From positions 1,058 through 65,057 of the forward strand of contig JBKPNQ010000156.1 in assembly GCA_046732715.1 (NCBI GenBank): DNA of 64,000 bases. Direction: 5' to 3'. The stretch comes from Acidobacteriota bacterium. GTDB taxonomy: Bacteria > Acidobacteriota > Vicinamibacteria > Vicinamibacterales > 2-12-FULL-66-21. Under the pieces are notes generated by a model. That model made no database searches. It saw only the letters and a program-made list of their open reading frames with translations, and was not told the origin of the DNA. This document shows positions 2,069 through 55,370 of the stretch, piece by piece (position 1 is the stretch's first letter; each line of letters opens with the position of its first letter). Position numbers and translations under genes: made by a program.

Positions 2069-2113
2069 GCTGATGACGATTGCTGATTGACTCATCAGCA
2101 ATCGTCAATCAGC
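2069..2113 (+). terminator. Imperfect hairpin (about 18 bp with two 1-nt bulges) built from TGCTGAT-type words, just after the permease stop
   Basis: GCTGATGACGATTGCTGATTGA (2069-2090) is near-complementary to TCATCAGCAATCGTCAATCAGC (2092-2113). It is followed by a weakly T-containing stretch. It overlaps the ORF-track start (2080) of the next gene. Confidence 0.4.
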
Positions 2114-2133
2114 AATTCTGTTACGATTTCCGG

Positions 2134-4077
2134 ATGGATTCCCGCGTCCTCGCCGCACGATCCGGACTCGGTGCGGTCGTGATCGCCTTCGTCATCGCCA
2201 CCGCCGCCGCGGCGCAGCAACCGGTTCAGTACAAGGTGTCGTTCCCCGAGCCCGAACATCATTACGCCCAGGTCGAGGTGACGTGGGGCGGCGTGACTGG
2301 CGCAACGCTCGAAGCGAGGATGAGCCGATCGTCGCCGGGACGGTATGCGGTCCACGAATTCGCCAAGAACGTCTTCGACGTTCACGCGTTCGACGGGCAC
2401 GGCAAAGAACTGAAACCAACCCGGCCAAATCCGTACCAATGGAACGTCACCGGTCACGACGGAACGGTCCGCATCACCTACAAGGTCTTCGGGAATCACG
2501 TGGACGGAACCTATCTCGCCGTCGACGAGTCGCACGCGCATGTGAACATGCCCGCGACGTTGATGTGGGCGCGGGGCTTCGATCTGCGTGCCGTCACCGT
2601 CAAGTTTGATCCCCCGGCTCAGTACTCGTGGAAGCCCGCGACGCAACTGTTTCCGACCGCCGATCCGTGGACGTTTACGGCGCCGAACCTGCAGTACTTG
2701 ATGGACAGCCCGACCGAACTGAGCGACTACACGCTGCGTTCCTTCAAGGTCAGGAATCCGGACGGGACGGAATACACGATTCGGGCGGCGGTCCATCACG
2801 ATGGCGACGCGTCAGTGATCGATGAGTACGCCGCAGGGGTAGAGAAGATCGTCAACGAAGCGGCAGCGGTGTACGGCGAATTCCCCGCCTTCGATACTGG
2901 CACCTACACGTTTCTCGGCGACTATGTTCCCTGGGGTGGCGGCGATGGTATGGAGCATCGCAACAGCACGGTGGTGGCGTCACCGACCTCGTTCAAAGAC
3001 CCGCAGGCGGCACGGGCGGCGCTCAGCACGGTTTCGCACGAGTTCTTTCATTGCTGGAACGTCGAGCGGATCCGTCCGAAGACGCTCGAGCCCTTCAACT
3101 TCGAAGAGGCGAACATCTCGGGTGAACTCTGGCTGGCCGAGGGCTTTACCCAGTACTACGGGCCTCTGATCATGACGCGAGCCGGGGTGTCGCCTGCCGA
3201 TCCGGCCGGACTGGTGAGAAACGCGGTTGCCGTCATCAACAGTCCGGCGCGACGGTTTCGATCGGCGGTCGAAATGAGCCAGATGGCCCCGTTCAGCGAT
3301 GCGGCGGTCGCGATCGACGAGACGAACCTGCCGACGACATTCATCTCCTACTACACGTATGGCGCAGCGATTGCGGCGGCGCTGGATCTGAGCCTCCGCG
3401 ATCGATCGAACGGACGGATCACGCTCGACGATTTCATGCGCGCGATGTGGGTGGCGTATGGGAAACCAGGAGGACCCAGCCCGGCGATCATCGCCAAGCC
3501 GTACACGTTGAAGGACGCTCGGGATCGTTTGGCGGACGTGTCTGGAGATCGTCGATTTGCCGATGAGTTTTTCGACAACTACATCGAGGGCCGGGAGCTG
3601 CCCGATTACGAAAAGCTGTTCGCGCGTGTTGGCCTCATCCTTCGCAAACGCAATCCGAGAGTCGCGTGGGTTGGTCTGCTCGATCAATCGTTTACCGGAG
3701 GTAGCCGACGTGGCGGCCGTCGTGGAGGTGCTGCGGCGACACCGAGCGTCACCGGCCCCGGAGTGCGCGTCCCCGGACTGGTGAATTGGGGAACGCCGGC
3801 GTACCGCGCCGGTCTCGAGGAGGGGGACCTGATAACCGCTGCGGACGGAAAAGCAATCGCGACGCTCGACGACTGGCAGGCAGCGGTGCGCATACACAAG
3901 CCAGGCGATTCAATGCCCGTGGAGTTCACTCGTCACGGTTCGACGGTCAAAGCGACGATCACAGTGGAAGAGGATCCGACGCTCGAGGTGGTGACGCTCG
4001 AGTCGACTGGCGGCACGCTATCGGCAGATCAAAAGGCGTTGCGGGACGGGTGGTTAGGATCTAAGAGAAAATCGTGA
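2134..4077 (+). CDS. M61 family (glycyl) aminopeptidase with C-terminal PDZ-like domain
   Basis: Signal-like N-terminus from ATG 2134. M61 zinc motif HEFFHCWNVERIRP. C-terminal PDZ-like GLEEGDLITAADGKAI. Contains a GGSRRGGRRGG low-complexity insert. Confidence 0.85.
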   Translation: MDSRVLAARSGLGAVVIAFVIATAAAAQQPVQYKVSFPEPEHHYAQVEVTWGGVTGATLEARMSRSSPGRYAVHEFAKNVFDVHAFDGHGKELKPTRPNPYQWNVTGHDGTVRITYKVFGNHVDGTYLAVDESHAHVNMPATLMWARGFDLRAVTVKFDPPAQYSWKPATQLFPTADPWTFTAPNLQYLMDSPTELSDYTLRSFKVRNPDGTEYTIRAAVHHDGDASVIDEYAAGVEKIVNEAAAVYGEFPAFDTGTYTFLGDYVPWGGGDGMEHRNSTVVASPTSFKDPQAARAALSTVSHEFFHCWNVERIRPKTLEPFNFEEANISGELWLAEGFTQYYGPLIMTRAGVSPADPAGLVRNAVAVINSPARRFRSAVEMSQMAPFSDAAVAIDETNLPTTFISYYTYGAAIAAALDLSLRDRSNGRITLDDFMRAMWVAYGKPGGPSPAIIAKPYTLKDARDRLADVSGDRRFADEFFDNYIEGRELPDYEKLFARVGLILRKRNPRVAWVGLLDQSFTGGSRRGGRRGGAAATPSVTGPGVRVPGLVNWGTPAYRAGLEEGDLITAADGKAIATLDDWQAAVRIHKPGDSMPVEFTRHGSTVKATITVEEDPTLEVVTLESTGGTLSADQKALRDGWLGSKRKS

Positions 4078-4081
4078 GTGT

Positions 4082-4179
4082 CAGTTTCCAGTTTCCAGGT
4101 TCCGGTTACCAGTTAGCAGTTTCCAGTGAAGAGCTGGCGACTGGAAACCACTGGAAGCTGGACACTGGCAACTGGGAAC
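4082..4179. repeat. 14 phase-locked heptamers (CAGTTTC-type then TGGNAAC-type) forming an imperfect long hairpin
   Basis: Units read directly: CAGTTTC CAGTTTC CAGGTTC CGGTTAC CAGTTAG CAGTTTC CAGTGAA GAGCTGG CGACTGG AAACCAC TGGAAGC TGGACAC TGGCAAC TGGGAAC. Perfect 8-bp core stem 4119-4126/4141-4148. Confidence 0.8.
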
Positions 4180-4205
4180 TCACTCTCCGCGTCACATATT
4201 AAAAA

Positions 4206-6563
4206 GTGATCGGTACAACGGTTCAGCATTATCGGGTTGACGAGCGCCTCGGGGCCGGCGGGATGGGCGAAGTGTATCGGGGTGAGGATACACGCCTCGG
4301 CCGGCCCGTCGCCCTGAAGTTTCTCCCGCCCTCGCTCAAGTCTGATCCGGAAAGCCGGGCGCGGTTCTTGAACGAAGCCCGCGCCGCCTCGATGCTGCGA
4401 TCTCCGAACATCGCGGTGACCTACGACATCGGCGAGGAAGATGGTGCCGACTTCATCGTGATGGAGTATGTCGACGGCGAGTTGTTGTCCTCACGGGTCG
4501 CGCGCGGTCCGTTGCCGGTGCGCGAGGTCGTAGAAATCGGGATCCAGGTGGCGGACGCTCTCGACGAAGCCCACTCGCGTGGGATCGTCCACCGCGACAT
4601 CAAGAGCGCGAACCTGATGAGGACCGAGCGGGGCCTGGTCAAAGTCCTCGACTTCGGACTGGCGAAGTTTGTCTCGAACGTCGCGTCTCAGGAAGTGACC
4701 AAACCGCAAATGACCATGGCGGGGATCGTCGTCGGCACCGTCTCGTACATGGCGCCCGAGCAGGCGCTGGGGCGGCCGATCGATCATCGCGTCGATCTGT
4801 TCTCGCTGGGCGTCGTCCTGTTCGAGCTGTTGACGGGGCGGATGCCGTTCGAAGGATCGACGCCGACGGAAATCATCGATCGAATTCTTCACGAGGTGCC
4901 GCCGCCGCCGTCGCGATATGCGAGCGGCGTACCTGCGACCGTCGATGTGATTGTCGCTCGCGCGCTCGAAAAGGATCCGGTCTTTCGCTATCAGCAAGCG
5001 AGCGATGTCGCGCACGATTTGCGGCAGGTCGGCGACGAGCTCGACGGGATGCCGCTTCGTCCGTCCAGTCGCATCACCGCCGCCGCATCGGCCGGGGCGG
5101 TCGAGAATTCGGTCGCGGTGATGACGTTCTCGAACATCACCCGCGAACCCGCCGATGACTGGATCGGCACCGGGATCGCTGAAACCGTCAGCTCCGATCT
5201 CAAGAACATTCACGGCCTGACCATCATCGGCCGCGCGCGGGTTTACGATGCGCTTCGTAATCTCAGCACCGATGCGCACCTGAACGATTCACTCGCCATC
5301 GATATCGGTCGCCGTCTCGGGGCAACCTGGGTCGTCGTCGGTGGATATCAGCGCCTCGCCGCCGTCGTGCGGATTACCGCCAGCTTCGTCGAGGTGGCGA
5401 GCGGCCAGGTCCGCCGCACTGTGAAGGTCGATGGCCGCATCGACGACATCTTCGCGCTGCAGGACAAGATTGTTTTTGAGCTGAGTCAGGGGCTGAACCT
5501 TGCGCTCCGAGGGACCGAGATTGCCGACATCGAGCGGCAGGAAACCCGTTCGGTTGCCGCCTACGAAAGCTACGCGCGTGGGATGATGAATCTGCGCCAG
5601 GCCACCCGCGAATCGATCGATCGCGCCATCGCCGCATTTGACGACGCGACGAAGCACGATCCGGAGTACGCCCATGCCTGGGCCGCGCTGGGAAACGCCT
5701 ATGGCCTGAAAGGAAGTTTCCTGGGCATGCACGAGATGGTCAACCAGGCGATCGATCTCGAGCGCCGCGCGCTCGCGATCGACCCCGAGTTCTCCGATGC
5801 GCATATGTGGCTTGGAAGCGGGCTGCTGGAACTCGGCCGCATCGAAGAAGCCATCGTCGAAATCCGCGAGTCGCTGCGTCTGGATCCAGAGAACGGGCAG
5901 GCGTACCAGGCACTCGCACGCGCCTACTGGGTTGGAAAGGGAGACTTCAAGGCCGCGATCCCGATGTTTGAGCGCGCCATCGCCTTGAATCCGGAAGCCG
6001 GCTACTCGTACCTCCAGTTGGCGCTGCTGCTGGCCTATGAGGGCCAGCTCGATCGCGCGGAGGAAATCAGTCGCCACGCGGTCGATTTGCAGGACCAATA
6101 CATCTCCGGCAACCTGGGGCTGCAGATCGTCGGCGCCCACGCGCGTCTGGGATACGTTCACTACTTGCGAGCACGCTACGACGATGCGCTGCGCGAGTAC
6201 GAACGGGAGATGGCCTTCATCGGAGCGGGCGACCATGCGCTGCGCGACCGCACACTGCTCGAACTGAACGTCAAGATCGGTGCGGTCTACTTACGGCAAG
6301 GGCGCCACGACGAGGCCGAGCGCCACTTCGGCCGGGCGCTCAAGAGCTTTGACGCCCGTGTCGCCAATGGCGCGGATGACCCGTTCACGCGTTACTACGT
6401 CGCGTCTCTTCACGCGCTTCGCGGTGACGCTGATCGGGCGCTCGATTCGCTCGAACGCGTCGCCCACAGCCTTCCCGCGCTCACGGCGGCTCGCGCGAGA
6501 CTCGATGTCGATCTGGCGTTCCTCCGCGATCAGCCGAGGTTCCACGCCCTGATCGGTTCGTAA
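4206..6563 (+). CDS. Ser/Thr protein kinase with C-terminal TPR-like repeat region
   Basis: GTG start. Kinase motifs GAGGMGEVY, HRDIKSANLM, DFGLAK and SYMAPE. The C-terminal half has repeated TPR-like helices. Confidence 0.9.
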   Translation: MIGTTVQHYRVDERLGAGGMGEVYRGEDTRLGRPVALKFLPPSLKSDPESRARFLNEARAASMLRSPNIAVTYDIGEEDGADFIVMEYVDGELLSSRVARGPLPVREVVEIGIQVADALDEAHSRGIVHRDIKSANLMRTERGLVKVLDFGLAKFVSNVASQEVTKPQMTMAGIVVGTVSYMAPEQALGRPIDHRVDLFSLGVVLFELLTGRMPFEGSTPTEIIDRILHEVPPPPSRYASGVPATVDVIVARALEKDPVFRYQQASDVAHDLRQVGDELDGMPLRPSSRITAAASAGAVENSVAVMTFSNITREPADDWIGTGIAETVSSDLKNIHGLTIIGRARVYDALRNLSTDAHLNDSLAIDIGRRLGATWVVVGGYQRLAAVVRITASFVEVASGQVRRTVKVDGRIDDIFALQDKIVFELSQGLNLALRGTEIADIERQETRSVAAYESYARGMMNLRQATRESIDRAIAAFDDATKHDPEYAHAWAALGNAYGLKGSFLGMHEMVNQAIDLERRALAIDPEFSDAHMWLGSGLLELGRIEEAIVEIRESLRLDPENGQAYQALARAYWVGKGDFKAAIPMFERAIALNPEAGYSYLQLALLLAYEGQLDRAEEISRHAVDLQDQYISGNLGLQIVGAHARLGYVHYLRARYDDALREYEREMAFIGAGDHALRDRTLLELNVKIGAVYLRQGRHDEAERHFGRALKSFDARVANGADDPFTRYYVASLHALRGDADRALDSLERVAHSLPALTAARARLDVDLAFLRDQPRFHALIGS

Positions 6564-6798: not shown

Positions 6799-9339
6799 GT
6801 GTCGAACCTACGATCGGGACTTCTTCGTGTCGCCATCACCGCAGCCATATCGTCGTTCTGCCTCGTCGTGCCGCGCGCAGCGGAGGCGCAACTCGCGCCG
6901 CAAGAGCGTCTCTGCGATCCCTCATTTGAAAACTGCCGGACAGATCTCCTGACCTACATCAAACAGGAACAGGTTGGCATTGACGCCGCGTTCTGGCTGA
7001 TGAGCGACGATCGGTACGTCAGCGCCATCATCGGACGCTGGCAGGCGGGTGTACCGGTGCGGTTGCTCGTCGATCCGCGCTGTGACGAAAATCATGTGAC
7101 CTGTACCGCTGCGCTGGACAAGTTTCAAGCCGCCGGCGTGCCGATGCGATATCGGGCGACGAGCGGCATCCTGCATTGGAAGATGATGCTGTTCGCGGGG
7201 CAGGGACAACTCGAATTCTCGGGAGCCAACTACAACCCGTTCGAGTTCGTCCCGGTGACACCATACGTGAACTATACCGACGAGATCGTCTACTACACCG
7301 ACGATGCGCCAATCGTTCAGAGCTTCATGACCAAGTTCGATGATCTCTGGACGAGCGCGACGGAGTTCAAGGATTACGCAAACATTACGACGCCGCTGGT
7401 CCGGAACTACGACACCTTTCCCATCAGTCCTGACCTGAACTTTCCTCCCGATCAGAGTTATCGCAGCCGGGCGGTCGGCCGGTACAACGCTGAGACGCAG
7501 CAGATCGACGTCATGATGTTCCGCATCACCGACGTGTCCCACACCAACGCGATCGTCAAGGCGGTGCAACGCGGAGTCCCCGTACGGCTGATCACGGACG
7601 ACAGCGAGTACCGCAATCCCGATCGACTGTGGGATGCCTACAACGTAGACATCATGTACCGCGCGGGCGTGCAGATCCGGGTGGATGCACACGAGGGCAT
7701 CGATCACGCCAAGCTGGTGCTGCTTTATCAGCAGGGTATGTCCATTTTTGGATCGTCGAATTGGACCTCGCCCTCGAGCGACTCGCAGCGCGAGCACAAC
7801 TATTTCACTACCAAGGCGGCGATCTTCAACTGGGCGAAATCGCAGTTCAATCGCAAATGGTCGAATAGCGCGGGTTTCACGGAAACGAAAGCGTTTGTGC
7901 CGCTGCCTCCGACCAAGCCCTCGTACGTGTCGCCGGCGAATGCTGCGACGGCGGTGCCGACCACGGGTACCAGTCTGAAATGGAATGGCGGCCTGTGGGC
8001 GCATGTCTACGACGTGTACTTCGGCACCAGTCCAAATCCACCGCTGCTAGCCCAGGACGTCGCCCTTGGGCCCAGTCAGAGCAGTTCTGACAACAAGACC
8101 TACTCGCTGCCCGCGCTCCAGGCCGGCACGCTTTACTACTGGAAGATCGTGTCCAAGACGATGGCCGGCCTGACCGCGACTGGACCGGTGTGGAGTTTCA
8201 CGACCGCCGGAACGGGCGGCGGCGGATCGCTGCCGAGCCCGTGGCTCGATGCCGACGTGGGTGCCGTCGGTGCTCCGGGCAGCGCGAGCTTCGCAGATCC
8301 GACATTCACCGTGAGGGGCGCTGGCGCGGACGTCTGGGGCACCGCCGATGCGTTGCACTTCGTCTATCAGCCGCTCGACGGCGACGGGACGATCGTGGCG
8401 CGGGTCGCGAGCGTTCAGAACACCGCGGCCTGGGCCAAGGCCGGAGTGATGATTCGCTCGTCGCTGAGCGCGGGGTCCGCACAGGCGTTCATGCTCGTGT
8501 CAGCCGGCAAGGGCGTGGCATTTCAGCGGCGCCTGAGTGACGGAGCAACCAGTCTCAGCACCGCCGGCAGTGCCTCGACCGCACCCCGCTGGGTGAAGCT
8601 GACACGAAGCGGCGGCGCGATTACGGCATACGAATCGAGCACCGGAACATCCTGGACTCAGGTGGGAAGTGATACGTTCTCGATGCCGGGGAGCGTCCTT
8701 ATCGGTCTGGCCGTGTCGAGCCACGTCAGCGGCGTGACGTGCACCACGACGTTCGACGGCGTCAGCGTGACCTCCTCCGCGCCACCACCTCCTCCCTTGC
8801 CGTCTGGATGGGACGATGCCGACGTCGGTGCTGTCGGTAGTGCCGGCACAGCCAGCTTCGCCGGATCGACCTTCAGCGTCACCGGACAAGGGGCGGACAT
8901 CTGGGGAACCGCCGATGCGTTCAACTATGCGTATCGCACGGTGATGGGGGACACGACGATCATCGCGCGGGTCGCGACGGTTCAGAACGTCAACGCCTGG
9001 ACCAAAGCGGGCGTGATGATCCGCGAGTCACTCGGTCCGGGTGCGACCCACGCTTATGCCCTGGTGTCGGCCTCCAAAGGTGTGGCGTTCCAGCGGCGGC
9101 CAACGACCGGCGGAGTGACCGTGAGCACGGCTGGAACGCTGTCAGCCGCTCCACGATGGGTCAAGCTAACGCGCGTCGGGAATGTGTTCAGTGCGTATGA
9201 GTCCAGTGACGGCAGCACATGGTCGCTCGTTGGCACCGAGACGATTTCGATGAACGCCTCCGTACTAGTGGGCCTGGCAGTGACGAGCCACTCGACATCA
9301 CCCGCGACAGCGACGTTCGACGGTGTGACGGTTCAATGA
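6799..9339 (+). CDS. Secreted phospholipase D-like (two HKD motifs) protein with FN3-like segment and two tandem beta-sandwich (LamG/DUF1349-like) modules
   Basis: Signal peptide. HWKMMLF (about nt 7174) and DHAKLVLL..GSSNW (about nt 7704). Two ~189-aa tandem copies at 8230-8770 and 8797-9336 (W.D.DVGAVG..G.ASF ... WVKLTR.G). Confidence 0.7.
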   Translation: MSNLRSGLLRVAITAAISSFCLVVPRAAEAQLAPQERLCDPSFENCRTDLLTYIKQEQVGIDAAFWLMSDDRYVSAIIGRWQAGVPVRLLVDPRCDENHVTCTAALDKFQAAGVPMRYRATSGILHWKMMLFAGQGQLEFSGANYNPFEFVPVTPYVNYTDEIVYYTDDAPIVQSFMTKFDDLWTSATEFKDYANITTPLVRNYDTFPISPDLNFPPDQSYRSRAVGRYNAETQQIDVMMFRITDVSHTNAIVKAVQRGVPVRLITDDSEYRNPDRLWDAYNVDIMYRAGVQIRVDAHEGIDHAKLVLLYQQGMSIFGSSNWTSPSSDSQREHNYFTTKAAIFNWAKSQFNRKWSNSAGFTETKAFVPLPPTKPSYVSPANAATAVPTTGTSLKWNGGLWAHVYDVYFGTSPNPPLLAQDVALGPSQSSSDNKTYSLPALQAGTLYYWKIVSKTMAGLTATGPVWSFTTAGTGGGGSLPSPWLDADVGAVGAPGSASFADPTFTVRGAGADVWGTADALHFVYQPLDGDGTIVARVASVQNTAAWAKAGVMIRSSLSAGSAQAFMLVSAGKGVAFQRRLSDGATSLSTAGSASTAPRWVKLTRSGGAITAYESSTGTSWTQVGSDTFSMPGSVLIGLAVSSHVSGVTCTTTFDGVSVTSSAPPPPPLPSGWDDADVGAVGSAGTASFAGSTFSVTGQGADIWGTADAFNYAYRTVMGDTTIIARVATVQNVNAWTKAGVMIRESLGPGATHAYALVSASKGVAFQRRPTTGGVTVSTAGTLSAAPRWVKLTRVGNVFSAYESSDGSTWSLVGTETISMNASVLVGLAVTSHSTSPATATFDGVTVQ

Positions 9340-9350
9340 GGGGACGAAAG

Positions 9351-9467
9351 GGAAAAGGGAAAAGGGAAAAGTTAGAAGTTAGAAGTTAGAAGTAAGTGCA
9401 AAATCAAAGTTATCCTTACCTCTGACTTTTAACTTTTCACTTTTAACTCTTAACTTTTCACTTTCTC
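9351..9467 (+). repeat. Heptamer-built hairpin: purine-rich arm (GGAAAAG x3, TTAGAAG x3) against pyrimidine-rich arm (CTTTTAA/CTTTTCA/CTCTTAA/CTTTCTC x6)
   Basis: Units read directly in 7-nt phase. The arms pair only if G:T(U) wobble is allowed, which means on the + strand transcript. Confidence 0.75.
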
Positions 9468-9471
9468 TTCC

Positions 9472-10380
9472 GTGCCCTCCGTCTACGACGTCATCATCGT
9501 CGGCGCCGGCCCGGCCGGGCTGAGTGCCGCGCTCATCCTGGGGCGATGCCGCCGCACCGTGCTGATTTGCGATAGCGGAAAGCCGCGCAACGCTGCTTCG
9601 CGCGCGCTCCACGGGTATCTGACGCGCGATGGGATTGATCCCCGCGACTTTCGGTCCATCGGGCGCGAAGAGTTGGCGAGATATGAAACCGTTCACCTCA
9701 ACGATGTTGCAGTCACGGATGCGAGATGCCACGCGGATGGACGGTTCACCGTAACCCTGGCTGATGGATCGATCGTCCGTTCACGGAAGCTGCTGGTTGC
9801 CACCGGCGTGTGCGACAACCTTCCGGAGATCGACGGCATCCAGGAGCTGTATGGGCGCAGCGTTTTTCACTGTCCGTACTGCGACGGGTGGGAGCTTCGC
9901 GATCAACCGATTGCGATCTATGGCAAAGATCAGCGGGGCGTCGGACTCTCACTCGAGCTGACCGCCTGGAGTCGCGATCTTGTCCTGTGCACGGACGGAC
10001 CCGGCGGAATCGCCGACGAGGATCGCGCGCTCCTGGCGCGCAACGGGATTCGGATTCGCGAGGAGCGAGTGATCGCGCTCGAGGGGCGCGACGGAATCTT
10101 GGAGCGAATCGTGTTCGCCGGCGGCGAGCCGCTCGGGCGGCGAGCGATGTTCTTTACGACCGGCCAGTTCCAACGATCGGAGCTGGCGATGCGGCTTGGC
10201 TGCGAAGTCAACGACAAGGGAACCGTTCGAACCGGCCACTACGAATCCACCCACCTCCCGGGCCTTTACGTGGCCGGCGACGCGTCGCGCGCGGTGCAAT
10301 GGGTCGTCGTTGCGGCGGCTGAAGGGGCTGAGGCCGCCTTTGCGATCAACACCGACCTGATCAAAGAAGAACTGAAATAA
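9472..10380 (+). CDS. NAD(P)/FAD-dependent oxidoreductase, thioredoxin-reductase-like
   Basis: GTG start. IIVGAGPAGLSAA dinucleotide fold. Redox CxxC in FHCPYCDGWE. Confidence 0.8.
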   Translation: MPSVYDVIIVGAGPAGLSAALILGRCRRTVLICDSGKPRNAASRALHGYLTRDGIDPRDFRSIGREELARYETVHLNDVAVTDARCHADGRFTVTLADGSIVRSRKLLVATGVCDNLPEIDGIQELYGRSVFHCPYCDGWELRDQPIAIYGKDQRGVGLSLELTAWSRDLVLCTDGPGGIADEDRALLARNGIRIREERVIALEGRDGILERIVFAGGEPLGRRAMFFTTGQFQRSELAMRLGCEVNDKGTVRTGHYESTHLPGLYVAGDASRAVQWVVVAAAEGAEAAFAINTDLIKEELK

Positions 10381-12557: not shown

Positions 12558-12653
12558 TCGCGCTCGTCGCTGATCCCGAATTCTTGGAATCCTCGAATCG
12601 CTTATCCTTGAATCGCGGCCTCCCGCCGAATGTGCAGCCTGCCTCGCCGGACC

Positions 12654-12705
12654 GGGAACCGCGAACCGCGAATAGCCGAACTGCGAACTGCGAACCGCGA
12701 CCTAC
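12654..12705. repeat. About 7 heptamers of the CGAACCG/CGAACTG word family
   Basis: GGGAACC GCGAACC GCGAATA G CCGAACT GCGAACT GCGAACC GCGACCT. The same word is arrayed at 20086-20127. Confidence 0.7.
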
Positions 12706-15759: not shown

Positions 15760-16760
15760 GTCCTCAATCGAGTGCGATAAAGCCGATCGGTCTGCTCGTC
15801 GGACGCGAGTACAGTTTTCCGCCGGCGTTCATCGCCCGCGTCAATGACAAAGGAGCCAGCCACGGCATCACCGCGGAGATGGTGCAGTGGGGCGGGACCA
15901 GGCTCGACGATCCGCCGAAATATTCGCTGATCGTCGACCGCATTTCCCACGAGGTGGAGTACTACCGTGGCGCGCTGAAGCACGCGATTCTCCAAGGCAC
16001 TTACGTCATCAACAACCCGTTTTGGTGGACCGCCGACGACAAGTATTTCAACTACGCGGTCATGTCGAGGCTGGGATGCGCGATCCCGAAGACGGTCCTG
16101 CTTCCACAGAAGGGATACCCCGCCGACATCGATCTGACGCCGGAATCGTTGCGGAACATGCAGTACCCGATCGACTGGGACGGCCTGCTTGACTACGTCG
16201 GTCGACCGGCGATTCTGAAACCGTATTCGGGCGGAGGATGGAAGCACGTCTACAAGGTGCGCGATGCCCGTGAGCTGATCGAGGCGTATGACGGCACCGC
16301 GCCATATTGCATGACATTGCAGGAGTTCATCGACTTCGACGGGTACGTCCGATGTTTTACCTTTGGCAAGACCGACATCACCCCGGTGCGCTACGATCCG
16401 CACCAGCGGTGTTATCTCGTCGATCATGCCTACCTCACGCCCGAACTTGGAGCCCGAATCGTCCGCGACGCACAGACGATCAACAAAGCGCTCGGTTACG
16501 AGATGAACACGATCGAATTTGCGGTGCGCGACGGCGTGCCGTACGCGATTGACTATCTCAATCCGGCTCCCGACTTTGAGCGCGAACGGATTACGGATTT
16601 TTACTTCACTCACGTGGTCGAAAAGATGAGCGACCTGGTGATCGATCGCGCGCTCAATCCCGATCCGACGCGCAGCTGGCCGCGATGGGAAGAGATGCTC
16701 GGCATCGGCTCGGCCGCCGGCTTCATTGGGGCCCCCCGCTCGCCAGCCGCGACGACATAA
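15756..16760 (+). CDS. ATP-grasp domain protein (RimK/glutathione-synthetase-like fold), unknown substrate
   Basis: ATGA overlap with the previous gene. ATP-grasp-like core ...RPAILKPYSGGGWKHVYKV... QEFIDFDGYVRCF ... NTIEFAVRDGVPYAIDYLN. Confidence 0.6.
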   Translation: MSPQSSAIKPIGLLVGREYSFPPAFIARVNDKGASHGITAEMVQWGGTRLDDPPKYSLIVDRISHEVEYYRGALKHAILQGTYVINNPFWWTADDKYFNYAVMSRLGCAIPKTVLLPQKGYPADIDLTPESLRNMQYPIDWDGLLDYVGRPAILKPYSGGGWKHVYKVRDARELIEAYDGTAPYCMTLQEFIDFDGYVRCFTFGKTDITPVRYDPHQRCYLVDHAYLTPELGARIVRDAQTINKALGYEMNTIEFAVRDGVPYAIDYLNPAPDFERERITDFYFTHVVEKMSDLVIDRALNPDPTRSWPRWEEMLGIGSAAGFIGAPRSPAATT

Positions 16761-42121: not shown

Positions 42122-42142
42122 GCCGGATAAGGTAGATCCCGA

Positions 42143-43693: not shown

Positions 43694-43707
43694 GAAACGG
43701 CCGGCCA

Positions 43708-44457
43708 CTACTGCCAGCGAAAGACCCGCGCCGAAAACCCCGTGCAGATTAGGAAGATCAGACCGAGGGCGGCGACGTCGCCGGCGTGTGCGATCCATCC
43801 ATCTCCCCGCCAGATCCCTCGCAAGAGCGACACGGTATAGGTCAATGGCAGCAGCCGCGCGACGAACTGCAAAGCCGGCGGCAGCGCAGTGATCGGGACG
43901 AACAATCCGGAAATGCCAACCATCGGATACAGAATCAACGTGCCGACTGGCTGAGCAAAACGCGCGGTGGGAACCAGGCTGGCGATGACGAACCCCATCG
44001 ACACGATGCAGAAGGTGCAGTAGAGCAGCGCGGCGCCGAACGCGACGAACGGGGCGTCAACCCCGGCAGGGAAGTATCGTTTGCCGGCCAGGATCATGCC
44101 CGCCAGCGTGACCGCGGTAAACAACAGCTTCACCAGCACGTGAGCGGTCAGGATCGTGATCGATCGCAGCGGTGTAGCCCGCAGTCGCTTGAGGATGCCG
44201 CCCTCGCGATAGATCGCGATGATCGTGACCAGCGACAGCACGGCGCTGAGCGCGATCAGGATCGCGGCCAGTATCGGCAGATCGACGGTGATCAGATCCG
44301 GCGAGCCCGCCGGCGGCCGCCCGGCTCGCGGCGCGAACATTCGTCCGAGCACGACAAAGACGAGCACCGGTATGCCGACGGTGCCGATGACACCGAGCGG
44401 CTCACGAACGAAGATCTTGATCTCGAGCCAGGTCAGGGTCAGCAGTCCTCGCAGCAT
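43708..44457 (-). CDS. ABC-2 type transporter permease
   Basis: Start ATG 44457 (MLRGLLTLTWLE). Six hydrophobic helices. 8 nt after the ATPase stop. Confidence 0.8.
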   Translation of the reverse strand: MLRGLLTLTWLEIKIFVREPLGVIGTVGIPVLVFVVLGRMFAPRAGRPPAGSPDLITVDLPILAAILIALSAVLSLVTIIAIYREGGILKRLRATPLRSITILTAHVLVKLLFTAVTLAGMILAGKRYFPAGVDAPFVAFGAALLYCTFCIVSMGFVIASLVPTARFAQPVGTLILYPMVGISGLFVPITALPPALQFVARLLPLTYTVSLLRGIWRGDGWIAHAGDVAALGLIFLICTGFSARVFRWQ

Positions 44458-44465
44458 CGTCAGCC

Positions 44466-45380
44466 TCAGTTCCGAATCGAGTGCCCGGTGACCTTGAGGA
44501 AGACATCCTCGAGCGTCGACCGTTCCGTGCTGAAGTCGGTGACCGGAATTCGATGCTCCGCGATGCATTCGATGACGCGGGTCACGAAGTCCTCGCCGCG
44601 TCCGCGGATCGTGACCCGTCCGTCGCGAGCGGTCAGGGAGTCCACCTGCGGAATCACCCGGAATCGTTCGCCGGCGGTGTCGTCTCTCGTCGTGACGATC
44701 ACGATCCGCTCCGGCGCGTGCCGGCGGATCAATTCGTCCGGCGTGCCGATGTCGATAATCCGTCCGTGATCGATGATCGCCACGCGATCGCACAGCCGCT
44801 CCGCTTCCTCCATCAGATGCGTGGTCAAAAAAACCGTCTTGCCACGGGCACGGATGCCGCGCACCAGTTCCCAGATCGCTCGTCGCGCCTGCGGGTCCAA
44901 CCCGGTCGTCAGCTCGTCGAGGAACACGACTTCCGGGTCGTTGATCAGCGCCAGCGCGATGAAGAGACGCTGCTTCTGGCCGCCGGACAGCGTCATGAAC
45001 CAGGCATTGCGCTTGTCGCTCAGGCCGAGCTGTTCCAGCAGTTTGTCGCCATCGACCGGATGTCTATATAAGGTGGCCCATAAGCCGACCGCCTCGCGGA
45101 CCTTGATGCGTTTTTGCAATTGCGCTTCTTGGAGCTGGACGCCGATTCGGTCCTGAAGCGCGTAGAGGTCTTTTCTCGGATCGAGCCCCAGCACCGAGAT
45201 CGTGCCCCGATCGGGCGCCCGCAACCCTTCGACGCATTCCATCGTCGTGGTCTTGCCGGCGCCGTTCGGTCCGATCAGGCCGAAGATCTCTCCCTCGTTC
45301 ACGTCGAACGAGACTTCGTCAACTGCGACCGACGGTCCGTAGGTCTTGCGGATTTGTGAGACCTGAACGACTGGCGGCAC
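44466..45380 (-). CDS. ABC transporter ATP-binding protein (DrrA/ABC-2 subfamily)
   Basis: GTG start. Walker A GPNGAGKTT, signature LSGGQKQR, Walker B VVFLDELTTGLD. Confidence 0.9.
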   Translation of the reverse strand: MPPVVQVSQIRKTYGPSVAVDEVSFDVNEGEIFGLIGPNGAGKTTTMECVEGLRAPDRGTISVLGLDPRKDLYALQDRIGVQLQEAQLQKRIKVREAVGLWATLYRHPVDGDKLLEQLGLSDKRNAWFMTLSGGQKQRLFIALALINDPEVVFLDELTTGLDPQARRAIWELVRGIRARGKTVFLTTHLMEEAERLCDRVAIIDHGRIIDIGTPDELIRRHAPERIVIVTTRDDTAGERFRVIPQVDSLTARDGRVTIRGRGEDFVTRVIECIAEHRIPVTDFSTERSTLEDVFLKVTGHSIRN

Positions 45381-45488
45381 GCCAAGAAGCTTACTGCGTT
45401 CGCCGTCACGCTGTATTCATGGCTTAGACAAGAAGGCAGTTCGACCGTGAACATCGACGAACGTGATCGCGCACCACGGCTGTGACCG

Positions 45489-46841
45489 TCAGTGGCCCGG
45501 ATACCCCGGCCGTTTGAGCCACACCGGCATCGGCGCCGACGCGGGTTTCTGGGTGTAGCGATAGGCCTCGATGGCCCATCCGCCTGGACCGCGACCCATG
45601 ACGAGCGTCATGAGCCCTTCGAACGTCGGCAGCGGTTTGCCGCCCGCATCACTGAGGCCGCGCAACTCCCACTTGCCGTCGACGACCGCGACGTCAGCGC
45701 CGATGCAGCGAACGTTGCCGAACATCAGGGGATGCTTGGAGCCGCGGTATTCCTGCCGCGTGAACAGCGCGGCACGATTCGCGCGAATCGTTTCCCGGCC
45801 GCGTTCGGTCAACCCATCAGGATGAACCATGTCGCCGTCGACAGACCAGAGCAGCGACAGGTTGGTTGCGTCGGCATTGTTCCAGTGGAGTGTGAACGCA
45901 TCGGCAAAGCCGCGAATCGTCCGCTCGTCGCCAGGTGAGCACGTCGGTCCGCTGCTGGCTGACGGGCGGCGTGCTGGCGGCGGGGCCGCAGGCGCGGCTG
46001 GCGGCGGCGTCATGAGCGGACCCGGCGCCGGCGGAGTGGCATGCCGGAGCACCTCGATGTCCTGGAGAATGGCGCCGACCAGCCCCTCAACGACGGTCCG
46101 TCCTTTTTCGCGCGTCGCGAGCGTCGGATCGCCCCACACGCCGCTCTCCGAATAGGTGCCGGAAGCGCCGCGACGTCGCGTGAGCTGCAACGGACCCGGC
46201 GACGCCGTGTATTCCTTCACCGCGCGACGCATGTCGACCGAGGCCGGCTCGATGTAGAGCATCATCGACGTCTCGATCTCGTCGGCGTGCGTGCCTCCTT
46301 CCTCCTGACGAATCGACGCTGACACCCGATCGAGATGGCCTGCGAGATCCGTGTACGAGAGCAGGATGCCCTGGGACGCGAGCAGCCGCGCAGCCGGCTC
46401 CAGCGCCCTCGTGGTCGAGACGCCGGTGTTAAGAATGTAGAACCGACGCGGGCCAAAGCGGGCGAGGCCGGTGATCGCCTCGACCGACAGCGTCCGGGCG
46501 GTATCGAGCGTCAGCGATGTGGAGCCTGGATATTCAATGAAGGCGGGGTAGAAGTGATACGCAAGCGGCGGTGCAACGACGACGTCCGATGCGTCGAGCA
46601 CGCGCGACGTCAGGTAATCGCTGACGATGGCGTCGTTGCCGAGTTTGAGATGCGGTCCGTGCTCCTTCGAGCCCGCGCCGAGCGGGACGACCACGACCGT
46701 GTCGGGCCGGAGCACGCTCTCGGCTTGCTGCCAGGTGATGTCCGACAGCCGGATGCCTCGCGGACGCGGCTGCGCCTGCGTCAGGCCGCGCGGGATAATC
46801 ACTGTGACCGCAAGGGTCGACGCGAGCAGCAGCACACGCAT
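45489..46841 (-). CDS. Creatininase-family amidohydrolase fused to a SnoaL/DUF4440-like C-terminal domain
   Basis: Start ATG 46841 (signal peptide). GAGSKEHGPHL and THADEIETSMML creatininase motifs. Pro/Ala linker. C-terminal NTF2-like segment. Confidence 0.65.
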   Translation of the reverse strand: MRVLLLASTLAVTVIIPRGLTQAQPRPRGIRLSDITWQQAESVLRPDTVVVVPLGAGSKEHGPHLKLGNDAIVSDYLTSRVLDASDVVVAPPLAYHFYPAFIEYPGSTSLTLDTARTLSVEAITGLARFGPRRFYILNTGVSTTRALEPAARLLASQGILLSYTDLAGHLDRVSASIRQEEGGTHADEIETSMMLYIEPASVDMRRAVKEYTASPGPLQLTRRRGASGTYSESGVWGDPTLATREKGRTVVEGLVGAILQDIEVLRHATPPAPGPLMTPPPAAPAAPPPARRPSASSGPTCSPGDERTIRGFADAFTLHWNNADATNLSLLWSVDGDMVHPDGLTERGRETIRANRAALFTRQEYRGSKHPLMFGNVRCIGADVAVVDGKWELRGLSDAGGKPLPTFEGLMTLVMGRGPGGWAIEAYRYTQKPASAPMPVWLKRPGYPGH

Positions 46842-52421: not shown

Positions 52422-53007
52422 GGCGTCCAGCTTTCTCGGTAGTCGAAGGCGTTCGATCGGTCCGCAACAGGTCCGCCAGCTTGCGGCGCGCCCGAAACAG
52501 CAACAGCCGAACGCTTTCGGCCTTTACTCCCAGAACGCCGGCAATGTCACGATGGTTCGAGCCCTGCGCGTACGCGAGCCAGAGCATTTGCCGCTCGCGC
52601 GGTCTGAGCTGCGCCATGGCGCGGCCGAGATCGGTGCGACGTTCGGCATCCGCGGCAACGTCCACGGCCGTGGGCAGCGTCTCGGCCGGAATCTCGACGA
52701 ATTGTCCGCGAAGCCGGCGGCGGTGTCCGTCGCGCGCCAGGTTCGTGGCAATGCGGAACAGCGAGTTCCGGCGATGCGCGTCGCTCTCGTGCAGCACCCG
52801 GGCGCGAAGGAATCGGTAGTAGGTCTCCTGGAGCAGATCGTCAGCCAGGTCAGGGCTTCCGGTAATGCGGGACAAGTACGCCCACAACGCGCGTGCCGTG
52901 CGATCGTACAGCGCGCGGAAGGCCTCCTCGTCCATTTCGAACACGCCGTCCGCGGCCGCAGCTTCAGCGCGAAGCTGCTCGACCTCGGCGATCGTCACAT
53001 CAGACAT
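52411..53007 (-). CDS. ECF-type RNA polymerase sigma-70 factor
   Basis: Start ATG 53007. Region 2 DLLQETYYRFL. Region 4 RERQMLWLAYAQGSNHRDIAGVLGVKAESVR. Confidence 0.85.
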   Translation of the reverse strand: MSDVTIAEVEQLRAEAAAADGVFEMDEEAFRALYDRTARALWAYLSRITGSPDLADDLLQETYYRFLRARVLHESDAHRRNSLFRIATNLARDGHRRRLRGQFVEIPAETLPTAVDVAADAERRTDLGRAMAQLRPRERQMLWLAYAQGSNHRDIAGVLGVKAESVRLLLFRARRKLADLLRTDRTPSTTEKAGRHDV

Positions 53008-53905
53008 GATCGGCTGGCGCAGGATCCAGGAGCCCGAGCTTTCTCGACAGGAAGTATGCGGCAACTGCGGAGACAATAAACCCGCCGCCCAGCGATAGAG
53101 CGACAACACCGAGGACGCGGAACAATTCGGCAGGCTCGTCGATGAACGTACTGCTGACGTAGAGCAAGCCGATTCCGGTCAGCAGCAGCACGACGCCGAC
53201 CTGGGCCGACCAGAGGATCCGAGAGAACGGCGCGCCCATCGATCGCGGCTCGTCGGGCAGCTGGATCGGCGCTGATTCGAGGAACCGGCGCCCGGCCGGC
53301 GTCTGCATGTAGGCGAGGAGATCCTCATTCGCCGTGAACCGATCCAGCAGCTTGCTGTGCACCTCGTACTGCACCTTCGACAGCTTGTTCCAGCGCCGCG
53401 TGTTGATCATCATGCGGACGAACCAGACTATCAGACCCACGACGACGAGGAATGCGGCGAACGCGGCAACCCCTGCGAGCAATCCGTTCATTTCCTGGCG
53501 CTGCCGCCATCGCGGGTCGTTGTAGGAGGGGTTTGGTGAATTGACGTTTTCAAGAAAGTACGCGGGATTGTGCGCCACTTCCTGGTGCTGGGCGATGAAC
53601 GAGGCCAATGCGGGATAGGGCGACAGATACGTCGGGTTGTTCATCAACGCAGGATCCAGCTTCAGCACGCGGCCGACCGCGGGAGGATACCTCTCGAGAA
53701 TCCTTTCGAGGTCCTGCCGAGTCTGGTCCGCGGTCGCATCCTGTGAACTCGCGGGAGTCGATCCGACCTGCCCGGCCACCGGAACCGCCCGGCGTGCGGA
53801 AGAAGCGGGCGCCTCCTGGGCCGCCGCCAGCGGAGACCCCGCCGCCCACAACAGGGCCACGGCGCAGACGGTGCGAAGAATTCTCTGACGGATTGTGTGG
53901 GGCAT
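53000..53905 (-). CDS. Membrane protein (hypothetical), first gene of the ECF sigma unit
   Basis: ATG 53905 is preceded by GAGGAG. Signal peptide plus three hydrophobic helices. Its stop overlaps the sigma start by 8 nt. Confidence 0.55.
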   Translation of the reverse strand: MPHTIRQRILRTVCAVALLWAAGSPLAAAQEAPASSARRAVPVAGQVGSTPASSQDATADQTRQDLERILERYPPAVGRVLKLDPALMNNPTYLSPYPALASFIAQHQEVAHNPAYFLENVNSPNPSYNDPRWRQRQEMNGLLAGVAAFAAFLVVVGLIVWFVRMMINTRRWNKLSKVQYEVHSKLLDRFTANEDLLAYMQTPAGRRFLESAPIQLPDEPRSMGAPFSRILWSAQVGVVLLLTGIGLLYVSSTFIDEPAELFRVLGVVALSLGGGFIVSAVAAYFLSRKLGLLDPAPADHV

Positions 53906-53970
53906 GTCCAATCGACTCCTCACACGCTATTACGCAGGCGCGACGAATTGGTTAACTATCTTCCTCGCTC

Positions 53971-54077
53971 GCTGCTGGCTGCTGGCTGCTGGCTGCTGGC
54001 TGCTGGCTGCTGGCGGAGACGAGATTCGCTGGAAAACTGGGAACTGGCAACTGGGAACTGGGAACTGGCAACTGGTT
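53971..54077. repeat. Two adjacent heptamer arrays: GCTGCTG x6 (perfect) and ACTGG(G/C)A x5 plus ACTGGTT
   Basis: Counted base by base: 53971-54012 and 54036-54077. The last unit overlaps the aminotransferase stop codon. TGGCAACTGGGAAC at 54045-54058 is identical to 4166-4179. Confidence 0.9.
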
Positions 54078-55200
54078 ACTTCTCGTTGAGTGCCGCGCGC
54101 AATTCAACCCCGATTCGGCGGAGGCCTTCGCGCAGGAAGGCCTCGTGACCTCCGAGCCAGATCCGCAAATATCCTTCGAGTCCGACGTGGGATCCTGGGA
54201 CGACGAGCGTATTCTGGCGGACTCGAATGCGTTCGGCGAGTTCGATGCTGGCGATGGGCGAGTCGTACTTGATCAGCGCAATCGCCCCGGCCTGCGGTTC
54301 CTGCCAGGTGACGCGGCCGCAGAAACTGTCGATCCACTGGCGGGCGATTGGCAGGTTGTGTCCGAGGATCTCGCGCGTCCGGGCGTAGCACCGGTCGCGA
54401 TTGATGCCTTCGACTGCCACCCGCGCGATTCGATCGGACATCTTGTTCGGCCCGATGGTCAGATAGTCGTGCTGCGTCCAGCAGTGTGAGGCGAGTTGCC
54501 CGGGCGCCACGATCCACCCGATCCGAATGCCCGGGATGCCGTACGCCTTCGACAGGCCGCTGGTCACGATGACGCGGTCGCTCAGGCCCCAAAAACTCTT
54601 CGTCCGCGGTCGATCGATCTCGGCCCCGAGATACACCTCGTCGGCTAACAGCCACGTGCTGGTCGACTCGCATCGGTCGACGATTCGGGCCATCGACGAC
54701 TCCGAAAGCACCGCTCCGGTCGGATTATTGGGATTGGAAAGATAGAGGAGGCGAGTGCCCGGTGCGACGGCACGCTCGAACTCCTCCCAGTCCGGATCCC
54801 AACCCTGATCCTGCCGAAGACGGAACGTGCGAACCTCAGCCCCCAGGCTCCGCGCGACGCCGGGCATCTGCATGTAGTTGGGCAATTGCATCGCGAAGCA
54901 ATCGCCGCCGTGCAGTTGGCTGAGCGCCACCAGGTAGTTTGCTTCCGACGTGCCGTTGGTGACCTCGATCTGGTCAATCGTCGTGCCTGGATACAGCGCC
55001 CTGATTCGTTCGCGAAGTTCGACGGTTCCGTTCGACTGGCTGTAACCAAGAGGCTGATCGAGGAACTCCTCCAGGTTGAATCCCATCTCGACGAGTTCAC
55101 GAAGTGTCAGCGGCCGCACGCCGCTTTCGCTCATGTCGTACTCGACGAGGTTTTCCCACGTCGACTGCATGCGCTCCATCTCGAACGGTTCTATCGGCAT
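54076..55200 (-). CDS. Pyridoxal-phosphate-dependent aminotransferase (class I/II)
   Basis: Start ATG 55200 (MPIEPFEMERMQS). PLP-lysine motif GLSKAYGIPGIRIGW. Confidence 0.85.
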   Translation of the reverse strand: MPIEPFEMERMQSTWENLVEYDMSESGVRPLTLRELVEMGFNLEEFLDQPLGYSQSNGTVELRERIRALYPGTTIDQIEVTNGTSEANYLVALSQLHGGDCFAMQLPNYMQMPGVARSLGAEVRTFRLRQDQGWDPDWEEFERAVAPGTRLLYLSNPNNPTGAVLSESSMARIVDRCESTSTWLLADEVYLGAEIDRPRTKSFWGLSDRVIVTSGLSKAYGIPGIRIGWIVAPGQLASHCWTQHDYLTIGPNKMSDRIARVAVEGINRDRCYARTREILGHNLPIARQWIDSFCGRVTWQEPQAGAIALIKYDSPIASIELAERIRVRQNTLVVPGSHVGLEGYLRIWLGGHEAFLREGLRRIGVELRAALNEK

Positions 55201-55217
55201 GTAGAGATCCTGGAGAT

Positions 55218-55370
55218 TGCGAAGAGAACGAAGTTCACAACGAAGGAACGAAGAAAACGAAGACGAACGAAGGTTTCTCTCGTAGGCAAAAAAAATACTG
55301 GTTTTCTTCGTTCGCCTCCGTTGACTTCGTTTCTTCGTTGTGAACTTCGTTTCCTTCGTAATCTTCGTCA
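55218..55370. repeat. Long imperfect inverted repeat built from ACGAAG-type words, loop with an A8 run
   Basis: Core AACGAAGTTCACAACGAAG(G)AACGAAG on the left arm matches the reverse complement of 55330-55358 at 27 of 28 positions. The central ~30 nt contain AAAAAAAA. Confidence 0.8.

Follow-up and report, generated by a model that had tools for sequence, protein, structure and literature searches.

The closest described relatives of the intergenic arrays treated here are the STRR of cyanobacteria, a name that stands for short tandemly repeated repetitive sequences. They are known from filamentous heterocyst-forming cyanobacteria (Mazel 1990, as cited in PMC4692102) and consist of 7-bp tandem repeats, which can form hairpins within an operon, as between hupS and hupL, and for which a role in transcript stability or translational coupling has been suggested (PMC2670836). 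Here, we analyze eleven spacers filled with such repeats in a 64-kb stretch of DNA with 63% G+C from a member of the Vicinamibacterales (Acidobacteriota). We call this whole stretch the window, and window coordinates refer to its full length. The arrays are probably STRR-type simple-sequence repeats, mostly heptanucleotide, spread across the lineage and hypermutable. Like STRR, they are made of 7-nt units, fall into several word families per genome, are dispersed between genes or cistrons, form hairpins in some cases and use words characteristic of the genome. They differ from STRR in their host and in the many more word families that coexist in one genome, and none of the STRR words CCCCAGT (STRR1), TTGGTCA (STRR2) and CAACAGT (STRR3) occurs in tandem in the window. 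The original prediction for this DNA overlooked that arrays of this type had been described: intergenic heptanucleotide repeats including hairpin-forming intercistronic STRR were already on record (PMC2670836).

Heptanucleotides are the commonest unit of long simple-sequence repeats (SSRs) in most genomes rich in 5-11-nt repeats and in many free-living bacteria with large genomes, and the ten richest genomes belong to Burkholderia, cyanobacteria, actinobacteria and Xanthomonas (Mrazek 2007, as summarized in PMC4679880). Long SSRs with 5-11-nt units, or LSSR(5-11), resemble the window arrays in their beyond-chance length, in the dominance of heptamers, in their non-coding location, in belonging to free-living bacteria with large genomes and in the slippage origin proposed for them, as far as PMC4679880 and PMC4692102 describe the class; mirror-image pairing of arrays, which is seen here, is not part of that definition. 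Rehm et al. (2015) described GGGAATC heptamers in Xanthomonas and GGGGA(C/T)T heptamers in Nostoc that are intergenic, lie near the ends of open reading frames (ORFs) and are sometimes arranged as inverted pairs in convergent spacers. They occupy the same gene gaps across species with widely varying length and sequence, and no link to gene function or regulatory role was identified (PMC4692102). Each of those genomes has one G-rich word family that forms G-quadruplexes (G4), whereas the words here are diverse and only the run at 9340-9366 is G4-capable; GGGAATC, GGGGATT and GGGGACT have no tandem occurrence in the window. A further single-word system, the TAACTGA direct repeats known from marine Beggiatoaceae and also from some cyanobacteria and Bacteroidetes, lies between genes, mostly a few nucleotides before start codons (MacGregor 2015, PMC4679880). 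It comprises mostly 2-6 copies with almost no inverted repeats, in contrast to the many words and the hairpins in half of the arrays here; three window arrays share its position shortly before a start (9472, 20046 and 40960), and tandem TAACTGA is absent from the window.

Phase-variable contingency SSRs have mostly 1-5-nt units (PMC4692102), with heptamers also found in Haemophilus (PMC12721329); they control surface and virulence genes of host-adapted bacteria, whereas the array at 20051 adjoins genes for an esterase and an O-methyltransferase. The repetitive extragenic palindromic (REP), BIME and ERIC elements are, like the arrays, intergenic and often intercistronic, hairpin-forming, genome-specific and dispersed. 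Each REP family has one 20-40-nt consensus without an internal tandem period, whereas the arrays have only a 7-nt word in common and their loops are unrelated. The prediction that they are not of the REP/BIME/ERIC type was correct: there is no genome-wide consensus, and Rfam at gathering thresholds returned no family anywhere in the window. Variable-number tandem repeats (VNTRs), including mycobacterial interspersed repetitive units (MIRUs), and the contingency SSRs share with the arrays a strain-level polymorphism in unit number and an intercistronic position touching stops and starts. MIRU units are 40-100 bp long. Taken as a class, the arrays share the defining behavior of intergenic heptamer repeats but none of the specific published words, and we found no report of such arrays in Acidobacteriota in the literature. 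One outcome named beforehand as overturning the prediction was that the arrays belong to a known repeat family whose function is established; the kind of repeat is indeed known, but the function of that kind is not established.

The periodicity of the arrays was measured in two ways. Tandem Repeats Finder (TRF) called tandem arrays at all eleven predicted spacers, nine with period 7 (scores 32-89), one with period 10 and one irregular; the predicted tally of ten heptamer arrays and one 10-nt array therefore stands except for 55218-55370, which is not 7-periodic. A lag scan, in which each lag was taken separately and segments were counted at a self-match of at least 80% over 28 nt, gave six segments (344 nt) at lag 7 and five at lag 14, with zero segments at lags 2-6, 8-13 and 15. 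Ten second-order Markov shuffles of the window, which served as the chance baseline, gave zero segments at every lag. By both the lag scan against shuffles and TRF, the window arrays are thus units of 5-11 nt iterated beyond chance, as in long SSRs. Roughly one in three intergenic gaps of the window is filled by an array. Their summed length is 945 nt, and they occupy 73-97% of eight spacers, in line with the claim that they fill them; treating in-register short-word arrays in spacers as one family-like phenomenon was likewise justified. The strict register that is kept over word switches follows naturally if variant units arise and amplify within one array.

Gene ends in the window were fixed by Pfam matches together with start- and stop-codon checks, and RNA folds were scored as z against shuffled sequence. 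The arrays are listed below; those beginning at 12651, 40973 and 53967 are elsewhere called 12654, 40974 and 53971, after the original prediction.

2059-2116: heptamer hairpin (TRF period 7) with an ATTGCTG-type left arm and an ATCAGCA-type right arm, between an ABC-2 permease stop (2056-2058) and an M61 peptidase ATG (2134); fold -33.8 kcal/mol, z -5.9; arm mirror identity 79%.

4082-4179 (TRF 4082-4175, period 7): heptamer hairpin of (CAGTTTC)n on the left and CTGG(A/C/G)A(A/C/G) on the right, placed after the M61 peptidase stop (4075-4077) and ahead of the GTG start of a Ser/Thr kinase (4206); fold -59.7 kcal/mol, z -7.0; arm mirror identity 70%.

9347-9467 (TRF 9347-9464): heptamer hairpin of (GGAAAAG)3(TTAGAAG)3 on the left and (ACTTTTN)6 on the right, with 100%-match sub-arrays and a 21-nt super-period in TRF, beginning 7 nt past a stop (9337-9339) and finishing 4 nt ahead of a GTG (9472); fold -48.8 kcal/mol, z -5.5. 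Its (GGAAAAG)n arm makes the G4-capable run GGGGACGAAAGGGAAAAGGGAAAAGGG at 9340-9366, the sole G4 motif in a window array.

12651-12705 (TRF 12651-12700, period 7): direct imperfect (GCGAACC)n array, 16 nt upstream of a YHS-domain gene (ATG 12722, with a GGAG Shine-Dalgarno sequence); fold z -0.4.

19170-19314: hairpin with a 10-nt period (TRF periods 10, 20 and 30), (GGTTCNNNNN)6 facing (NNNNNGAACC)5-6, in a convergent spacer between stops at 19165-19167 (+) and 19318-19320 (-); fold -78.4 kcal/mol, z -8.5.

20051-20127 (TRF 20051-20126, 100% match): two perfect direct arrays that abut and keep a single register, (AGCTTCC)5 followed by (CGCGAAC)6, between an O-methyltransferase stop (20132-20134, minus strand) and an esterase ATG (20046-20044, minus strand), with (GGUUCGC)n(UGGAAGC)n-UCAGA-AUG as the sense RNA; fold z -0.5.

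24747-24777 (TRF 24749-24777, period 7): short direct (AAAAGTN)4 array between the gene of a LuxR-type response regulator and gene 24173-24631, both on the minus strand. It adjoins the conserved palindrome CTAGGGAAGATCCCTAG (24724-24740) and is itself unpaired in the spacer fold, whose z of -2.7 comes from the palindrome.

29689-29748 (TRF period 7 at 29721-29746): near-perfect heptamer palindrome in a convergent spacer, with units TAATCCC, TCATCCC and TGATCAC facing GTGATCA, GGGATGA and GGGATTA, the arms being 93% mirror-identical unit for unit; its final 3 nt are the TAA stop (29748-29746) of gene 29746-30696 (minus strand); fold -49.8 kcal/mol, z -9.7.

40973-41008 (TRF 93% match): direct (ACTTTTT)5 array, sense RNA (AAAAAGU)5, which includes the last two codons and the TAA stop (41002-41000, minus strand) of a DUF3500 gene and ends 13 nt ahead of an ATG (40960, minus strand); fold z -0.7.

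53967-54077 (TRF 53967-54075): two direct arrays, (GCTGCTG)6.9 (97% match) and, after 20 nt, (AACTGGS)6 (91-100% match, with a 21-nt super-period), abutting an aminotransferase stop (54076-54078, minus strand) and lying 61 nt upstream of an ATG (53905, minus strand); fold z -0.85.

55218-55370: long palindrome, imperfect, whose ACGAAG/CTTCGT cores recur irregularly every 8-12 nt (TRF period 9, 18-22% indels; CGAAG spacing 9, 12, 8, 9, 10, and CTTCG on the other arm 19, 8, 12, 9, 9), between a PALP-enzyme stop (55371-55373, minus strand) and an aminotransferase ATG (55200, minus strand); fold -72.4 kcal/mol, z -8.3.

Heptamer arrays are probably a lineage-wide property of Vicinamibacterales genomes; a neighboring protein places the window in this order. 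We gave the same lag scan to 62 Vicinamibacterales-like loci (1.07 Mb), in which genes were called crudely, from ORFs plus G+C content at third codon positions, leaving ~17% of the DNA non-coding. These loci contain 100 lag-7 arrays, 81 of them in the non-coding fraction, so that the arrays are concentrated there, as in LSSR(5-11). Every other lag from 4 to 12 gave 0-16 arrays (3, 0 and 6 at lags 4, 5 and 6; 16, 14, 10 and 6 at lags 8, 9, 10 and 11). The density of lag-7 arrays is ~125 per Mb in the window, ~93 per Mb in the Vicinamibacterales-like loci, ~15 per Mb in Acidiferrales loci and ~6 per Mb in Terriglobia and other loci.

The arrays change quickly, in whole units, although not everywhere. 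Metagenome contigs of the same species, which come from five JGI samples and one ENA sample overall and whose proteins are the same as in the window, carry the arrays at 12654 (three contigs), 24747 (three contigs) and 40974 (four contigs) unchanged. For the 20051 array, a contig with an identical esterase protein (L084; L-numbers denote related loci or contigs compared with the window) has (GCGGTTC)4(GCTGGAA)7 where the window has 5+5 units, a difference in copy number between close strains of the kind that the prediction had proposed to look for. A more distant relative, L212, matches window 15147-26429 at 96.4% identity over 11 kb. The three arrays within this match are 68%, 91% and 87% identical to those of the window, with units gained and lost and a 14-nt higher-order repeat; at 20051 it has about four AGCTTCC units, one of them truncated, and nine GCGAA-type units in the higher-order repeat. 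The 24747 array is 87% identical in L212 versus 97% for the non-array remainder of its spacer, and the third codon positions of flanking genes are 93.5-96% identical, so that arrays change faster than synonymous sites. The length instability by whole-unit gain and loss that characterizes LSSR is thus found in L084 and L212, next to three imperfect or short arrays that are stable. For the 53967-54077 array, exact-protein look-ups (53000-53923, 53000-53905 and 9472-10380) and a metagenome scan with the array flank found no match that could inform on strain variation.

Between species, where the neighboring protein is 84-91% identical (91% in amino acids for its best species representative), the same spacer can hold the same array, another one or none. 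In the 19170 spacer, downstream of an M29-like gene, the same GGTTC 10-mer hairpin is present in L002 and, as an ortholog, in L212, and only its right arm is found in L004. Heptamer hairpins of other words occupy the orthologous spacer in four relatives (L005, L008, L015 and L048), direct heptamers in two (L039 and L045) and an 11-mer in one (L031), and about eleven further relatives have an array-free spacer of 3-35 nt. The esterase leader at 20051 carries CAGNTTC-type arrays in L066, L002, L003, L005, L008 and L016, an unrelated word in L007, and in other relatives 19-60 nt free of arrays. Since relatives do without an array at the same spacer, the arrays are added and dispensable DNA. The 12654 spacer has different words in every ortholog; in L003 (4440-4626) it is a 187-nt array mixing the 7-nt TCCCGAA with the 8-nt units TCCTGGAA and TCCTCGAA, which indicates that unit size can drift inside one array. 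Just upstream of the window array at 12651, at ~12570-12650, lie degenerate GAATCC-type words with mixed 7- and 8-nt periods. The arrays are thus born repeatedly and turn over quickly, and yet a word family can last long at one site.

Two other elements in this region are not built of heptamers. The perfect palindrome CTAGGGAAGATCCCTAG (24724-24740) beside the 24747 array is kept in 8/8 orthologous spacers and is identical in conspecific contigs. A small gene downstream of it encodes a sigma-54-interaction-like domain, and the palindrome may serve as an operator or as a structural RNA element. Directly after the palindrome stands AAAAGTN in the window, and AATCCTG, ATTCAGC or no array in other species. 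An element of 166 bp at 24011-24176, bounded by perfect 20-bp terminal inverted repeats (CTAGTGTCCTGTCCCCGTGG and CCACGGGGACAGGACACTAG), looks like an insertion polymorphism of a miniature inverted-repeat transposable element (MITE). It is absent from L212, inside a larger indel of ~270 nt, is present in the conspecific L089 and has an 81% match in L056 (8787-8867); its right terminus provides the stop codon of gene 24173-24631 (minus strand).

Six arrays fold as hairpins (2059, 4082, 9347, 19170, 29689 and 55218; z -5.5 to -9.7) and five are direct, which agrees with the predicted division into arrays with complementary arms and purely direct ones. The direct arrays at 12654, 20051, 40974 and 53971 fold like shuffles (z -0.4 to -0.85). 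Each hairpin arm matches the reverse complement of its partner at 70-93% identity, the two being mirrored unit by unit, and in 55218-55370 even the irregular core spacing is mirrored, which argues that the arms are copies of each other and did not grow independently. In relatives, an inverted partner array with the complementary word lies within 400 nt of 24 of 108 arrays. Selection on the RNA would be expected to favor the transcribed strand through G-U pairing. Among 25 structured arrays in co-directional spacers, the sense strand had the folding advantage in 10 and the antisense strand in 13 (Wilcoxon p 0.83), and the co-directional hairpins of the window favored sense in 2/4; RNA-level selection on the hairpins is therefore unsupported by these folding energies. 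None of the six window hairpins is followed by a U-tract or T-run. The window does contain a canonical intrinsic terminator at 35143-35109 (minus strand), located downstream of gene 35188-35853 and made up of a 15-bp stem with TTTCTTTT after it. The prediction had noted it at 35097-35143 and had concluded that the arrays are not the terminator style of this genome; both statements agree with what we see. It is the clearest terminator-like site in 27000-46000, where the other ten have short stems and do not exceed the number in shuffles.

All eleven arrays lie between genes, nine in co-directional and two in convergent spacers (19170 and 29689), beside ordinary metabolic and regulatory genes; ARAGORN found neither tRNA nor transfer-messenger RNA (tmRNA) genes in the window. 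Arrays start 0-7 nt past a stop codon or run into it, and in two cases the stop is inside the array (41002-41000 and 29748-29746). Three arrays end 4-13 nt before starts that have no canonical Shine-Dalgarno sequence (GTG 9472, ATG 20046 and ATG 40960, the latter two on the minus strand), and the start at 4206, also directly after an array, lacks one as well. Elsewhere in the window such sequences are present, with AAGGAGG before 24631 (minus strand) and GGAG before 12722. The longest-ORF start beside an array is often wrong, as in the corrections from 2080 to 2134, from 53923 to 53905 and from 55548 to 55200. The orientation of the direct arrays relative to transcription is inconsistent across the window. 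Among spacers of at least 40 nt in the related loci, the proportion holding an array was 13.1% for tandem, 13.5% for convergent and 9.5% for divergent ones, without a strong bias. A terminator-type placement, considered as a candidate rule, is not supported, since divergent spacers are not avoided at these frequencies, which derive from crude gene calls.

Words recur at unlinked loci, as had been predicted. In the window, seven cross-locus word pairs agree within one mismatch versus 1.4 expected (P ~4e-4), and the identical 14-mer TGGCAACTGGGAAC is found at 4166 and 54045, as claimed, and nowhere else in the window. Of array pairs separated by more than 1 kb, 23.5% have a word in common within a genome versus 5.3% between genomes (odds ratio 5.5, p 3e-9), and dozens of unrelated words occur within one genome. 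One relative, L034, has two unlinked copies of ~150 nt (4673-4825 and 9840-9985) of the form (CAACTCC)n-center-(GGGAGTT)n, with centers 90% identical over 41 nt and unrelated flanks. At least some spread therefore proceeds by copying a whole array-bearing hairpin to a new spacer. With regard to MITEs, this is the one pair of dispersed copies; the window arrays have no common interior, and no target-site duplication was seen for them.

In places the words may be under constraint. In the 10-nt array, GGTTC/GAACC is invariant in eleven units, in both arms and in four genomes, and 24/26 mismatches fall in the 5-nt linkers (P ~7.5e-5). A general rule of conserved core and variable linker was examined and dropped, as 4/77 imperfect heptamer arrays concentrate their variation in columns at p < 0.05; the 10-nt array does show this pattern, as do a few others (for instance L029 1888-2011). 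A core shared by every word was sought as well, and motif enrichment is mild (CAG/CTG 1.8-fold; TCAG, GGGA and AACT 3-4-fold), and these counts are not independent. A collection-wide scan for (CCAGNTT)3 or longer found this word in Acidobacteriota (24 of the 80 matches listed), Halomonas, Pseudomonas, Anaerolineae, Bacteroidota, Desulfobacterota and Planctomycetota. CCAGNTT/CCAGCTT is thus like TAACTGA one word in distant phyla. Where a long ORF starts within 25 nt downstream, a crude criterion, the GGAANCU orientation was found 37 times and the opposite one 20 times among 105 evaluable cases (binomial p 0.03). Perfect (CCAGCTT) arrays of 10-18 units occur in four Pseudomonas and Halomonas contigs (L105, L109, L128 and L143). 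In L109 and L143, when read from the opposite strand, they are ~8 nt upstream of an apparent ATG, like window 20051, so that the same word and placement recur in distant phyla.

We propose the following course of events. A local 7-mer, or occasionally a unit of 8-11 nt, would be duplicated as a seed, and replication slippage or unequal exchange would then amplify and contract whole units in place. Point-mutant units amplified within the same array would account for word switches that keep the register and for super-periods of 14 and 21 nt. Whole arms may be duplicated as inverted copies through fold-back or template-switch synthesis, or quasi-palindrome correction may keep them complementary, to give mirror hairpins, and array-bearing hairpins or words may sometimes be copied to other spacers, which would build up the genome-specific word repertoire. 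Slippage and template switching are inferred as the mechanisms. As extra DNA, arrays would expand a spacer until they meet flanking coding sequence, and being tolerated only where coding is undisrupted, they would fill spacers up to stop and start codons. Transcribed arrays probably affect expression secondarily: hairpins could act as pause, terminator or mRNA-stabilizing structures without a U-tract and direct arrays as unstructured or Shine-Dalgarno-like leaders, and unit number could tune the downstream gene. Units of 6 nt or less are almost missing from the size spectrum, which peaks sharply at 7 and tails off to 11; it would fit the speculation that 7 nt is the smallest slipped loop to escape repair. 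In the published proposal, the 7-nt preference is set by the length of the DNA stretch that the polymerase holds (Mrazek 2007, via PMC4679880 and PMC4692102).

Several observations weigh against simple-sequence repeats that grow by slippage. The three imperfect or short arrays are fully stable among conspecific contigs. The CAGNTTC family persists at the esterase spacer though the neighboring protein is only 84-90% identical between the species and arrays diverge faster than synonymous sites, which slippage leaves unexplained, as in-place slippage alone leaves the recurrence of words at unlinked loci. The invariant GGTTC core with its variable linkers looks like constraint or directed homogenization, and the orientation bias of GGAANCU is a hint at a role of that word in mRNA leaders. 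The concentration of arrays in non-coding DNA, moreover, depends on crude gene calls. Some of these points lend themselves to a reading in which the arrays are selected cis-regulatory RNA elements, with hairpins as U-tract-independent terminators, attenuators or 3'-end stabilizers and direct arrays as translation leaders (Shine-Dalgarno-like GGAAG or unstructured A/U-rich) whose unit number tunes expression. The six very stable hairpins straight after stops, the three arrays close ahead of starts without canonical Shine-Dalgarno sequences, the favored (GGAANCU)n orientation before starts and the word family kept at the esterase leader in six related species would all be at home there, as would the transcript stability or translational coupling proposed for cyanobacterial STRR hairpins (PMC2670836) and the translational role proposed for TAACTGA repeats (PMC4679880). 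Such elements, however, should not be dispensable, and many relatives have an array-free spacer of 0-35 nt at the same positions; nor does the sense strand have a folding advantage, divergent spacers carry arrays almost as often, divergence is faster than at synonymous sites, the window direct arrays are inconsistently oriented and the Xanthomonas study identified no regulatory role (PMC4692102). We therefore consider selection for regulation a possible but doubtful origin of the arrays.

The genome-specific repertoires, the 14-mer common to 4166 and 54045 and the two L034 copies with a common center and unrelated flanks could also point to copies of small elements, either non-autonomous and mobile or REP-like, that spread from spacer to spacer and whose inverted termini are the heptamer arrays. 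This is improbable for the window, where the arrays have no consensus beyond the word, loops and centers show no relationship, target-site duplications were not seen, five of the arrays are purely direct and orthologous arrays exchange words and alter their unit number in place; the only clear MITE-like insertion (24011-24176) is of a different make, with unique 20-bp inverted termini and no heptamers. Still less probable is selection of a repeated core at the DNA level, whether as binding arrays for a nucleoid-associated or other sequence-specific protein or as non-B DNA (cruciform or G4). The invariant GGTTC at 10-bp spacing (about one helical turn) in both arms and four genomes, the 21-nt super-periods (about two turns) of some arrays, the strand symmetry of the complementarity and the one G4-capable run (9340-9366), reminiscent of the G-rich heptamers of Xanthomonas and Nostoc (PMC4692102), would suit it, but a single binding protein is hard to reconcile with dozens of unrelated words per genome, the test for column-restricted variation was negative across the 77 heptamer arrays, unit numbers are not multiples of three and relatives dispense with the arrays. 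Short-read assemblers handle tandem repeats poorly, and one array-flank search returned no metagenome contig; artefacts of assembly or sequencing are nevertheless effectively refuted by independent assemblies, as the same arrays recur base for base in independent contigs from six metagenome samples and like arrays occur in dozens of independently assembled metagenome-assembled genomes. A STRR-type origin remains the explanation that we favor. The description in the original prediction is sound, and the phenomenon itself will not surprise a specialist, although the comparative series is unusually clear.

Intergenic heptamer repeats have been known since 1990, and the function and the 7-nt preference of the class are still without explanation. 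At ~90-125 arrays per Mb, a Vicinamibacterales genome of a few Mb would hold several hundred of them, and the same spacer can be followed through dozens of species with other words or periods, with one arm, both or none, which makes birth, inversion and spread tractable. For annotation, arrays mark breaks in short-read assemblies, starts that are easily mis-called and strain-level VNTR markers, the last being useful for this abundant and rarely cultured soil group. It is a long shot that a dedicated, lineage-specific trans-acting system, perhaps a nucleic-acid-binding protein or an enzyme that reads or copies words with a 7-nt period, makes or maintains the arrays and co-evolves with the word repertoire as REP-associated tyrosine transposases (RAYTs) do with REPs. 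If this were true, the arrays would be a genome-wide, copy-number-tunable layer of post-transcriptional control, and the 7-nt rule that holds in cyanobacteria, Xanthomonas, Beggiatoaceae and Vicinamibacterales would go back to one and the same system.

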